DNA of 22,155 nucleotides from the IMG/VR virus record IMGVR_UViG_3300029822_001172, positions 1-22,155 of that record, one strand, 5' to 3'. The notes under the pieces were generated by a model. It searched no databases. It saw only the letters and a list, made by a program, of their open reading frames with translations, and had not been told where the DNA came from. The first letter of the stretch is position 1. The number at the start of each line of letters is the position of its first letter. Both the position numbers and the translations under genes were made by a program. Below are positions 13,088 to 20,288 of this stretch, one piece after another. Origin of the DNA: a virus.

Positions 13088-13963
13088 TCAGATAACGGAT
13101 ATCTTGCAGATTGCCTTATCCTGCTTGATCCTGAGAATTCCCGCGCTGTAAACTCTTCCTGTCAGGTCTCCCGTGTCTGGATGCTCTGAATCGATACCAT
13201 GCTCAACGGTATAATTCTGAGTTAGATAGAAATCGAAATATGCTTTCCCTACCGATGGAGTCGGTAGAACGAGTCCGTCCGAATCTGGGAGGACTGTATC
13301 AGGTACGGCATAGATTGCACCGCCGTTCAGCATACTCTCGACTATCGGTTTTTCAAGCTGTCCAGAAGTGCTGTGAACGCTACTCTCAAGCTCTCCGTAA
13401 TTCGTGAAGCCGAGAACCATGTTTAGGGGCATGTTGTATGCGGGAACTCCGTAGCCTGCCATAGTCGTTTTTGCTCCGGCAAGTGCTTTTATTGCGTTGC
13501 CCCATGTGCCGAAGTCGTTTGACGTGGAATAGTCGGAACCCGCGCCCTGATACAGCCCTAGGATATCGTAGTTTGTACCGTCGTTTTTCACGCCCTGGAT
13601 GATTGCCATATCCTCGGCGGTAACAGTCTGATAGCCTGCAGAAAGCGCGGCGGCATTGTCGATATCTACACCACCGACTTTCCAGCTCTCGTACATTCTG
13701 CGAGGAACTTTGTAATCTTTCCAGTACACAGGGATTTTGTTGTTTGTCAGGGCGACGTCAATCATGTCCTCGTTTCCAGAAGTGAAACCATAGGACACAT
13801 AACCTTCGGACATTTCGGTAATTTTGCCCCATTCGACTGAGGAAATACCGAATCCCTGCGCGGGAGTCACGTAAACGAGCTTACGCCCGATGTTAACTTG
13901 TCTCAGAGGGTCAACAAGCTGAGATTCAATTTTCTTTGAAAAAGTTGCAAGTGCATTTGTCAT
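13088..13963 (-). CDS. HK97-fold major capsid protein, family-1 encapsulin (Linocin M18)-like
   Basis: 291 aa with AGGAGG RBS. GRKLVYV...G, IPVYWKDY...AEDMAIIQG and LEKPIVESMLNGGAIYAVP motifs match the encapsulin pattern; context is viral. Confidence 0.88.
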   Translation of the reverse strand: MTNALATFSKKIESQLVDPLRQVNIGRKLVYVTPAQGFGISSVEWGKITEMSEGYVSYGFTSGNEDMIDVALTNNKIPVYWKDYKVPRRMYESWKVGGVDIDNAAALSAGYQTVTAEDMAIIQGVKNDGTNYDILGLYQGAGSDYSTSNDFGTWGNAIKALAGAKTTMAGYGVPAYNMPLNMVLGFTNYGELESSVHSTSGQLEKPIVESMLNGGAIYAVPDTVLPDSDGLVLPTPSVGKAYFDFYLTQNYTVEHGIDSEHPDTGDLTGRVYSAGILRIKQDKAICKISVI

Positions 13964-17173: not shown

Positions 17174-17180
17174 CTCTTTT

Positions 17181-17256
17181 CCTCCTATCTTAGCTCAGGG
17201 CACACCGCCCTACTACAATATACTATAAGGCGTTCCAAGTATATATAACTAACTAC
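17181..17256 (-). promoter_or_regulatory. Repeated promoter-hairpin-RBS element, copy 1
   Basis: TTATATATAC...GCCTTATAGTATATTGTAGT-AGGGC-ggtgt-GCCCT-GAGCTAAGAT-AGGAGG. The 47 bp at 17187-17233 are identical to 18774-18820. Confidence 0.85.
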
Positions 17257-17823: not shown

Positions 17824-17944
17824 TGTTTAGAGCTGGTCTTCGGTTTTGTGTAAATATAGTTTCAATTGCTCTCTTAAGATGCTCGTTGTTTATTAGTTCA
17901 ATTTCATCATTTTCCAGTTTCTCAAAATCTTCTTTTGTTACCAT
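17816..17944 (-). CDS. 42-aa ORF (MVTKEDFEKLENDEIELINNEHLKRAIETIFTQNRRPALNNE)
   Basis: CGGAG RBS; first gene after promoter copy 2; overlaps the next ATG. Confidence 0.6.
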   Translation of the reverse strand: MVTKEDFEKLENDEIELINNEHLKRAIETIFTQNRRPALNNE

Positions 17945-17949
17945 TTAGG

Positions 17950-18017
17950 TTATCTCCGTGTATTAGCTTAGGTTGTACAATATACTATAAGGCGTTCAAA
18001 GTATATATAATTAACTA
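17950..18017 (-). promoter_or_regulatory. Repeated promoter element, copy 2 (hairpin lost)
   Basis: TTATATATAC...ACGCCTTATAGTATATTGTA, followed by CAACCTAAGCTAA instead of the hairpin. Confidence 0.8.
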
Positions 18018-18140
18018 TTTGGTATACCATATAGTTACTCTAATAAAACAAAGTCCTTAATCAAATAATCACAAGTTGAGGAAGGGCAGGACCACCCCGA
18101 CCCTGTATAAGCTCTATTTTTAGTTCCTGCTCTTGTATAT
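17976..18140. repeat. 165-bp direct repeat, copy A (partner 18801-18965)
   Basis: Ungapped alignment at offset 825 with 16 mismatches in 165 bp (~90% identity, manual count). Confidence 0.95.
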
Positions 18141-18761: not shown

Positions 18762-18843
18762 TTCACTCCTTACATCTTAGCTCAGGGCACACCGCCCTAC
18801 TACAATATACTATAAGGCGTCCCATGTATATATAATTAACTAT
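18762..18843 (-). promoter_or_regulatory. Repeated promoter-hairpin-RBS element, copy 3
   Basis: TATA, TATAGTATATTGTAG, hairpin AGGGC-ggtgt-GCCCT (18784-18798) and RBS. Confidence 0.85.
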
Positions 18844-18965
18844 TTAGCATACCATATAGTTACTCTAATAAAACAAAGTCCTTAATTATATAATCACAAG
18901 TCTCAGATGGGCACGCCCAACCAGACCCTGTATAAGCTCTATTTTTAGTTCCTGCTCTTGTATAT
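18801..18965. repeat. 165-bp direct repeat, copy B (partner 17976-18140)
   Basis: See copy A. Confidence 0.95.
18860..18965 (-). pseudogene. 5'-truncated copy of the Zn-ribbon gene 18035-18244
   Basis: Reads YTRAGTKNRAYTGSGWACPSETCDYIIKDFVLLE-stop. An in-frame TAA lies upstream and there is no start codon. Confidence 0.8.
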
Positions 18966-19073
18966 ACAATTAGTTCCTTAGTGGAAAAGTGGGGTTAATA
19001 TTTCTTTTTTTGTACTATTTTTTGATGAAATTTGGCTTTATTTTAATACAATTCTTACATTTGTACGGATTAT

Positions 19074-19163
19074 ACGAAAAGTACTTATATGAATAGTGCG
19101 TATAGTATATTGTAGTAAGGGCATAAGGCCCTGCGAGAAAATAAGAAAAGGTGAAAAGAAATG
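19074..19163 (+). promoter_or_regulatory. Repeated promoter-hairpin-RBS element, copy 4 (divergent)
   Basis: GAAAAGTACTTATATG (BRE/TATA)...TATAGTATATTGTAGTA-AGGGC-ataag-GCCCT-G...AGGTGA-AAAGAA-ATG. Confidence 0.85.
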
Positions 19164-19403
19164 ATATATGGAAAAATTTTGAACCTAACTCAACATGTAG
19201 CAACCCCTGAACAGGTTGAAGCCGGAGTTTTTGAACCTTCTGCTGAAGACAAGAAGATGATACAGAAACTCCTTACATTTGATGAAATTGCCGAAACTGA
19301 ATCATGGCACATGTACCAAAGGGAAAGTATTGACCAGGTACAGCCTGATGGTTCGGTCAAAAAGACCGCAGTATTCAGGCACTGCGGATTTGTGGAGGTC
19401 TGA
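19161..19403 (+). CDS. Csx20-like (CARF-related ring nuclease) homolog with the central segment missing
   Basis: N-terminal [13 protein letters not shown] and C-terminal [25 protein letters not shown] match my recollection of the Csx20 termini (H-x2-T-x2-Q; R-x-S-x-E...G-x-V-x-K-x2-VF-x-H-x2-F). Only 80 aa. Confidence 0.6.
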
Positions 19404-19405
19404 AA

Positions 19406-20269
19406 ATGACCTCAATAAAAGAACTAAATAGAGACATCGAGGCAAATGCTGTAGAACTTGATTCCGCGCATAGATATGAAAACGGGTATGACTACTCAGA
19501 TGAGGAGTTTTACACTCTTCAGGAAAAACAGAGAAAACTAATTGAAAAAGTTAGAAAAGCACTTGAACCAAAATACGAATTTCCGTACTATGCCCTCATA
19601 AGAGTGCATTCTAAGAGAGATGGAACGTTTCATATTCCTGCCCCAATGTTCAATGGGATGACAAGAAGATCGAAATGGGCAGGGAGTCTCCCAATCGCAG
19701 GAGATAAAAGAGATGGTGAATATTACGAGTGCCCCTTCTGCGGAGAAAAGAGTTTCTATTCGGGTGTATGTGAAGAGTGTAGAAGAGATTTTGAAGTGTG
19801 GGAAAAAGACGGTTACGATGGCCAGTGGGTTGACGGCCCACTTCCGCTTGAGTATAGAAACCATGAAGCTATGAAGAATGCAGCGAAAGATGAACTGCTC
19901 AGAAGAATTGATACAGGTGTTCCCGATCTCGGAATATACTCAGCCGAAATAGTTCTACATGTGGCGTGGGGCGCAGAATGGGAACCTTCGCCTTTCTTGA
20001 AGTGTTCAGACTACTCAGCACAGTGGGCACTCGACAGGATCGAAAAAGAGATCCGAAGTCATGAGAAACTTAAAAAATATGAAGAATATCAAGAAATGAT
20101 CCGTAATTATACTCTCGAAGATGGAGTGCCGCTTGATTATCTCGAAGGTGACGTTATCACAGTTGAAGGCACAAATGAACTCCGCAGGCATGTCAATGGT
20201 GTTTGGCAGCATAAACATCCTGAAGATGGGTATGATTACTGGCATCCTATGGCACGGGTCCACAAATAA
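19406..20269 (+). CDS. Hypothetical protein with a central Zn ribbon
   Basis: 287 aa; CPFCG-x7-CEEC; GGAGGT RBS. Confidence 0.75.
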
Positions 20270-20288
20270 GAAAAGGTGAAAAGAAATG
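20264..20288 (+). repeat. 25-bp exact direct repeat of the RBS-ATG segment at 19139-19163
   Basis: AAATAAGAAAAGGTGAAAAGAAATG occurs at both sites. Confidence 0.95.

Follow-up and report, generated by a model that had tools for sequence, protein, structure and literature searches.

A Csx20-like gene with an in-frame internal deletion at the head of an early operon in a provirus fragment

Csx20 is a stand-alone cA4 ring nuclease found in type III CRISPR loci, as confirmed experimentally (Hoikkala et al. 2025, PMC12409355), and the His, Arg and acidic residues that it conserves are presumed to constitute the catalytic set (PMC8284326). Phage homologs of csx20 have been published as presumed anti-CRISPRs (Hoikkala 2025, PMC12409355; csx20-aca14, NAR 2026, PMC13551039), with four phage genomes carrying Csx20 described in the one case (PMC12409355) and a csx20-aca14 operon of Pasteurella multocida in the other (PMC13551039). 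Virus-encoded destruction of cA4 that blunts type III signaling is likewise the role of AcrIII-1/Crn2 (DUF1874), for which it is experimentally proven; for the family described below, which differs from AcrIII-1 in fold and in descent, the same role is only proposed. An earlier note on the DNA studied here had read the gene at 19161-19403 as a viral Csx20-like homolog lacking its core, and had put forward its full-length relatives as a candidate distinct viral anti-type III family. In the literature, viral Csx20 homologs already figure as proposed anti-type III genes.

Compared with Csx20, the intact members of this family are homologous over the whole domain of ~125 aa and similar in size, they share the motifs H..T..Q, a Gly-rich loop, Y-x-x-[ST]-x-R, DG and F-x-H-x-x-F, and one of them (locus L112) adjoins Cas10 and Csx1 just as Csx20 does. 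They differ in that most members are found on viruses and mobile elements, outside CRISPR loci, and in scoring 17-41 instead of 138-166 bits against the Csx20 model; the copy studied here additionally lacks the 58 core residues, and the ring-nuclease role of the family is putative. The csx20-aca14 operon has a gene of the same family in the same place, at the front of an early/anti-defense operon. In contrast, the carrier here appears to be a tailed virus that infects archaea of the Methanosarcinaceae, the gene has an internal deletion, and the small downstream protein has no detectable similarity to Aca14. What we add is modest and comprises the exact deletion mechanism, the recognition of the mobile copies as a sister family apart from canonical Csx20, and a description of the contexts in which they occur.

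The provirus fragment and its early operon

The window, by which we mean the whole stretch of 22,155 bases that was analyzed, is an IMG/VR provirus fragment with an estimated completeness of 33% that encodes a tape-measure protein, a major tail protein and an HK97/encapsulin-type capsid protein. The named relatives of the capsid protein come from Methanolobus and Methanosalsum (56-58% identity), which points to a host within the Methanosarcinaceae, a placement made only through these capsid relatives. No match was returned when the entire window was compared with GenBank phages by megablast. The major capsid gene (13088-13963, minus strand) carries PF04454 (linocin/encapsulin-type HK97 fold); its relatives in the databases bear the name 'encapsulin' and are likely mis-annotated proviral capsid genes, and a 96% identical match is filed under an 'Acetivibrionales' MAG, probably from a mis-binned contig.

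The Csx20-like gene lies in a viral early region and not in a type III CRISPR-Cas locus, and it opens a rightward string of genes with the following features:

19074..19138, plus strand: promoter-like element of putative function, consisting of an A/T-rich TATA-like box, TATAGTATATTGTA, followed by the stem AGGGC-N5-GCCCT
19139..19163, plus strand: 25-bp segment with ribosome-binding site (RBS) and ATG, exact copy 1, at the start of the Csx20-like gene
19161..19403, plus strand: Csx20-like (PF27247-type) deletion allele, 80 aa, from the open reading frame, the alignment and the AlphaFold2 model
19318..19323, plus strand: deletion junction, one remaining AAAGGG copy (microhomology), from comparison with intact relatives
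19406..20269, plus strand: gene for a 287-aa protein that bears a weak zinc-ribbon signature; its translation is coupled to that of the Csx20-like gene
20264..20288, plus strand: 25-bp RBS+ATG segment, exact copy 2, at the start of the 79-aa gene and absent there in the related contigs L002-L004
20286..20525, plus strand: gene for a 79-aa protein, candidate ribbon-helix-helix regulator (lead only), at the operon end in all related viruses
from 20926, rightward: Orc1/Cdc6 gene

The 80-aa reading frame begins with ATG, has a Shine-Dalgarno-like GGTGA 8 nt upstream, and contains both the N- and the C-terminal peptide quoted in the earlier note. Its assignment to the first position of a cassette was upheld: the gene comes first behind a putative promoter and 5'UTR region conserved in related viruses, with the sequence upstream of the gene (from 18961) retained at 92-94% in L002-L004. 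Copies of the promoter-like element occur in inverted orientation at 17208-17227 and 18795-18814. In all four viruses the Csx20-like gene stands first and a 75-79-aa gene last, with a differing gene in the middle; L003 and L004 carry a 145-aa gene at this position, and L002 shares only the first 48 aa of the 287-aa protein. The two 25-bp copies bracket the block of Csx20-like gene and 287-aa gene in the window only, which suggests that the cassette may have been exchanged through recombination between ribosome-binding regions.

There are only five homologs of the 79-aa protein, all of them near-identical, and a Pfam search gave no match. Among named Atlas clusters, those nearest to the protein are without exception ribbon-helix-helix families, but their scores of 0.77-0.80 amount to a lead only; BLASTP produced no alignment between the 79-aa protein and the Aca14-type protein of Pasteurella phage Pm86. 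As a hypothesis, it may act as the regulator of the operon. The leftward early region also contains 165-bp direct repeats (17976-18140 and 18801-18965) that are 90% identical and 825 bp apart, as well as a 76-nt promoter-like element that is present three times (17180-17255, 17942-18017 and 18767-18842).

Kinship of the intact family with Csx20

A search of 5.8 billion proteins listed 283 relatives of the window protein, almost all of them 117-140 aa long and all bearing the precomputed Pfam accession PF27247. With a copy of Pfam that lacks PF27247, the window protein and five intact relatives remained unmatched at E<=1 apart from one chance match, and none of the six matched DUF1874 (AcrIII-1/Crn2). 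A PHROGs search gave no match. Against the NCBIfam Csx20 model NF040559, an equivalog with a curated cut-off of 70 bits, the window protein alone gave a weak match restricted to its C-terminus (16.7 bits, E 0.007), whereas intact relatives covered profile positions 2-122 of 124 with 26.6-41.2 bits (E 1e-7 to 2e-10) and cas-linked and phage members scored 17-37 bits. The equivalog cut-off was reached neither by the window protein nor by the family members scored (17-41 bits). We took as genuine Csx20 a set of 21 proteins scoring 138-166 bits, drawn from 401 genomes of the phylum to which a Thermoanaerobacter MAG belongs; that MAG holds both a genuine Csx20 adjoining Cas10 and, on a separate contig, a member of the present family. 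The NF040559 scores were cleanly bimodal, at 138-166 versus 20-49 bits.

Alignment of the 150-sequence family profile with the 21 genuine Csx20 sequences by hhalign extended over 109 columns with a probability of 97.1% and an E value of 7.6e-11, at a profile identity of ~15%. Residues H12, Q18, GGAP, Y107 (of YAFS) and R112 of the family align with H7, Q13, G72/G75/A76, Y93 and R98 of Csx20, while F130, H132 and F135 align with F116, H118 and F121, and the DG motif is matched as well. Near-invariant in the family are H12, R112/E113 and H132, of which H12, R112 and H132 are the counterparts of H7, R98 and H118 in Csx20. PADLOC models of Csx20 also match the family at E 2e-7. Collectively, the profiles indicate that the intact family is a true but distant homolog of Csx20 and forms a separate sister group, and the description of the window protein's termini as Csx20-type agrees with NF040559, hhalign and PADLOC alike. 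It is the intact family that shows this whole-domain homology; the allele in the window is without a complete single domain of ~120-140 aa (central beta-sheet plus Gly-rich loop) and matches through its two ends only.

AlphaFold2 modeled the intact protein from the 150-sequence alignment with a pLDDT of 94.5 and a pTM of 0.85, predicting a strand (6-8), three helices (16-20, 28-38 and 48-63), a second strand (78-82), a further helix (86-97) and a long hairpin (103-118/124-137). Foldseek with the intact model returned nothing from the PDB at E<=0.001; a sequence-profile search of the PDB gave no match at E<=10. The best VIA alignments were with aspartate racemases (Z 6-7), and below them, over the full model, came Cam1 (5.5), Cap4 (5.2), Cap5 (5.1), Sis0811 (4.2), Can2 (4.2), Csx1-Crn2 (4.1-4.4) and Csm6. 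The predicted protein may share its Rossmann-like fold with the Crn1/CARF/SAVED group, at Z values of only 4-5.5, below those of generic racemases, and with no sequence similarity. Such matches are consistent with a CARF-like Rossmann fold and do not discriminate. In a viral structure library, the intact model matched only uncharacterized viral proteins of the same family.

The deletion and the residues it removes

The closest relative of the window protein, P0001 (138 aa), is 100% identical to it on either side of a single 58-aa gap, which falls at about residues 54-111 in the numbering of the intact relative P0003. In nucleotide terms, window segments 18961-19323 and 19318-19549 match the IMG/VR contigs L002, L003 and L004 at 92-97% identity, and between the two matching blocks these contigs hold exactly 174 bp that the window lacks. 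The earlier observation that a central strand-helix segment is missing is borne out by these comparisons. In the intact contigs the 174-bp segment is bounded on both sides by the 6-nt direct repeat AAAGGG, a junction that is the signature of slippage or of microhomology-mediated deletion, and its loss leaves the reading frame intact. We also considered the reverse, that the 174 bp were inserted in the relatives, and ruled it out; the 174 bp code for motifs that members of the whole family and Csx20 alike conserve, and the presence of the segment must therefore be ancestral.

Given that the flanks have not diverged from intact P0001 at the protein level, the deletion event is recent. Relative to L002-L004, 4 codons differ synonymously and 4-5 non-synonymously, too few to be informative. 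Within the cluster at >=90% identity around P0003, all 13 of 13 distinct sequences are 137-142 aa long and occur on dozens of contigs; the deleted form is known from one contig only, P0002 being the window's own product.

Lost with the deletion are the greater part of helix 48-63, the GGAP strand at the center with its loop, helix 86-97 and the YAFS-bearing first half of the hairpin strand (intact model numbering). Of the 33 positions that are invariant or near-invariant, 10 lie within the deleted segment. What remains is beta1-alpha1-alpha2 with the NLTQHxAT..EQ motif and the C-terminal beta-hairpin (RES..DGSV..FRHxGF), including the polar residues H12, R54 (=R112) and H74 (=H132). The 80-aa model, built from a 93-sequence alignment, consists of the N-terminal beta-alpha-alpha unit (pLDDT about 94) and the hairpin joined through a low-confidence linker, and it reaches an overall pLDDT of 77.4 and a pTM of 0.50. 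AlphaFold2 confidence is not a measure of stability, but the fall in confidence agrees with loss of the core.

Another shortened member occurs in Pasteurella phage Pm86 (L158:309-699; MH238467.1 about 55350-55740) as an unannotated 66-aa C-terminal fragment with 45.6% identity over residues 80-136, which overlaps a 66/71-aa ribbon-helix-helix reading frame of the Aca14 type. The N-terminal half of this Csx20-like gene is missing, which makes it another decayed copy. Because the Pm86 arrangement matches the csx20-aca14 operon of P. multocida, the published phage 'csx20 homologs' belong to this sister family. They are part of a large and mostly mobile group with occasional type III, AAA-Csx3 and WYL connections.

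Distribution of the family and competing readings

An exhaustive HMMER scan recovered 1047 family clusters at 50% identity, tandem-doubled and fused forms among them. The family is large and sits mostly, though not exclusively, on viruses and other mobile elements. Full-length viral relatives, which the earlier note had postulated, are present at 56 IMG/VR loci, where the neighbors are early and replication genes (RecT, Pol A, helicases, RNR, PhoH, integrase, terminase); no cas gene was found among 133 viral neighbors. Cultured carriers include Rhodothermus phage RM378 (Rm378p002), Fusobacterium phage JD-Fnp4 and Pasteurella phage Pm86, and plasmids of Azotobacter, Aromatoleum and Caminibacter carry the gene as well. 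A further 70 loci in GTDB genomes, at 40-52% identity, span CPR bacteria, Proteobacteria, Bacteroidales and several archaea. Most neighbors at these loci are without a Pfam match, and clustering of neighbors gave no universally conserved partner gene.

Proximity to cas genes was confined to two of the 70 genome loci. In L112 (Hyphomicrobium) the family member lies between Cas10/RAMP and a Csx1-type CARF effector, and L096 lies near Cas10-type genes. The latter locus (L096:8645-10387; Synergistaceae UBA5560, G005 contig C34) encodes a 580-aa fusion of WYL, WCX and a complete C-terminal Csx20-like domain, situated 9-15 kb from two Cas10-type genes, and the fusion is a candidate cOA-sensing or self-limiting regulator. 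In two Saccharibacteria MAGs (L110:9998-12059 and L108:1332-3460) the Csx20-like gene is directly followed by an AAA-Csx3 gene (500 aa, Crn3-domain), and no Cas10-type gene was found in either genome; the pair may form a cOA-handling module without type III CRISPR. These four loci (L112, L108, L110 and L096) connect the family to cOA signaling, and their members all score as the sister family and not as genuine Csx20. Cas10-type matches were obtained in 15 of 49 host genomes, but the small CPR genomes, about 22 in number, gave none; the family must therefore have some target or context besides type III cOA. Its occurrence beside type III genes and in numerous CPR genomes without Cas10 shows that the family is not exclusively viral.

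We favor, with a probability of roughly 0.6, the reading that the allele was recently inactivated and that the intact virus-borne gene specifies a Csx20-like protein, most likely a cOA-cleaving counter-defense. The intact 138-aa protein would be a small Rossmann-like (CARF-type) protein, presumably a dimer, that is homologous to the cA4 ring nuclease and is expressed first in the early operon. From homology and context, it most likely binds and cleaves the cyclic oligoadenylate of the host type III complex, with the effect that cOA-activated effectors would stay off. The 174 bp would then have been lost in frame from the provirus when the two AAAGGG hexamers recombined or replication slipped from one to the other. 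The remaining 80 aa keep the His/Arg/His residues, and the product is most likely non-functional because the core that positions these conserved residues is gone. On balance the intact form is a credible candidate cOA ring nuclease for counter-defense. Among the results that count against this, the NF040559 scores lie well under the cut-off, about 22 CPR carriers show no Cas10-type gene, and the CARF/SAVED Z values of 4-5.5 rank below generic racemases.

Counting against a dead allele are the in-frame deletion and the retention of the RBS, the start codon, the His/Arg/His residues (H12, R54 and H74) and the coupling to the next gene. With expression signals intact, the 80-aa protein might be a functional minimal variant, acting as a cOA sponge, as a hairpin-dimerizing subunit or in a new role. 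Its N-terminal part still models with high confidence, and an independent short form, P0026 (85 aa), has a similar core gap. An in-frame outcome is expected by chance in one case out of three, however, and the central strand and Gly-rich loop that were lost are invariant in the family and in Csx20. The pTM of the model is down to 0.50, there is no post-deletion sequence divergence that could show purifying selection, and the close relatives are all intact. Moreover, fewer than 110 aa are found in only 4 of the 149 other listed representatives, and the boundaries of the short forms differ, with P0026, P0184, P0188, P0240 and the Pm86 fragment gapped in different places. Sporadic decay within a large mobile family accounts for this pattern better than a conserved mini-architecture does, and we regard a functional minimal variant as improbable. 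Among the three options raised in the earlier note (decayed copy, cOA sponge or minimal variant), the decayed copy is best supported by the short-form pattern, the intact close cluster and the allele model. The restriction of the deleted form to one contig would also be expected if the assembly had collapsed from one AAAGGG hexamer to the other, or if the sample contained the deletion as a minority variant. We give this very little credence: an assembly would need a much longer repeat than 6 nt to collapse, the flanks of the clean junction are collinear with three relatives, and microhomology deletions of such a size are common in vivo.

A different question is what the intact family acts upon. 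It could sense or degrade a different nucleotide signal, either of the CBASS type or of an unknown kind, or it could help to regulate the element itself; the window allele would then be a dead copy of something else. The lack of a Cas10-type gene in the CPR carriers speaks for such a role, as do the recurrence of a TrmB-type regulator beside the family in CPR loci, the use of the domain as the C-terminal module of a WYL regulator, and structural neighbors that are CBASS SAVED receptors as much as CARF proteins. We nevertheless judge it unlikely, given that the only assayed homolog, Csx20, is a cA4 ring nuclease, that the presumed catalytic polar residues are conserved, and that L112 has the same Cas10/Csx1 partnership as genuine Csx20. 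Moreover, the MAGs do not cover whole genomes, and phages may be the carriers of many CPR copies. A more sweeping proposal would make the family a broad counter-signaling enzyme or sponge beyond type III, in CPR and with AAA-Csx3 and TrmB-type partners, and/or the 80-aa form a functional mini-protein (hairpin dimer poison or nucleotide sponge) that tunes host immunity for the provirus; we consider this a long shot.

Under the favored reading of a recently inactivated counter-defense gene, the deletion allele itself is most likely an ordinary broken gene. Should the intact gene encode a ring nuclease, the tailed viruses of Methanosarcinaceae would share a countermeasure proposed for bacteriophages, and the proposal would then span domains. 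The intact allele of the related contigs and the 174-bp deletion allele form a near-isogenic pair and hence a ready natural control.

Several further arrangements were observed in the course of the survey. A TrmB-type winged-helix protein of ~257 aa is encoded 1-5 genes from the Csx20-like gene in 12 loci, mostly of CPR (L059, L064, L068, L069, L072, L082, L086, L090-L092, L101 and L126). Two family copies per locus are present in L014 (6001-6390 and 8095-8490), L061 (4793-5179 and 7761-8147) and L095 (174-545 and 713-1084), and those of L061 flank a 739-aa protein without a family match. Tandem-doubled proteins with lengths of 260-350 aa are numerous in the HMMER scan. Finally, genuine Csx20 domains (150-155 bits) are embedded in frames of 578-607 aa in L140, L142 and L144 (genomes G141, G314 and G234), and these frames presumably correspond to fusions of Csx1 with Csx20 that the literature describes.
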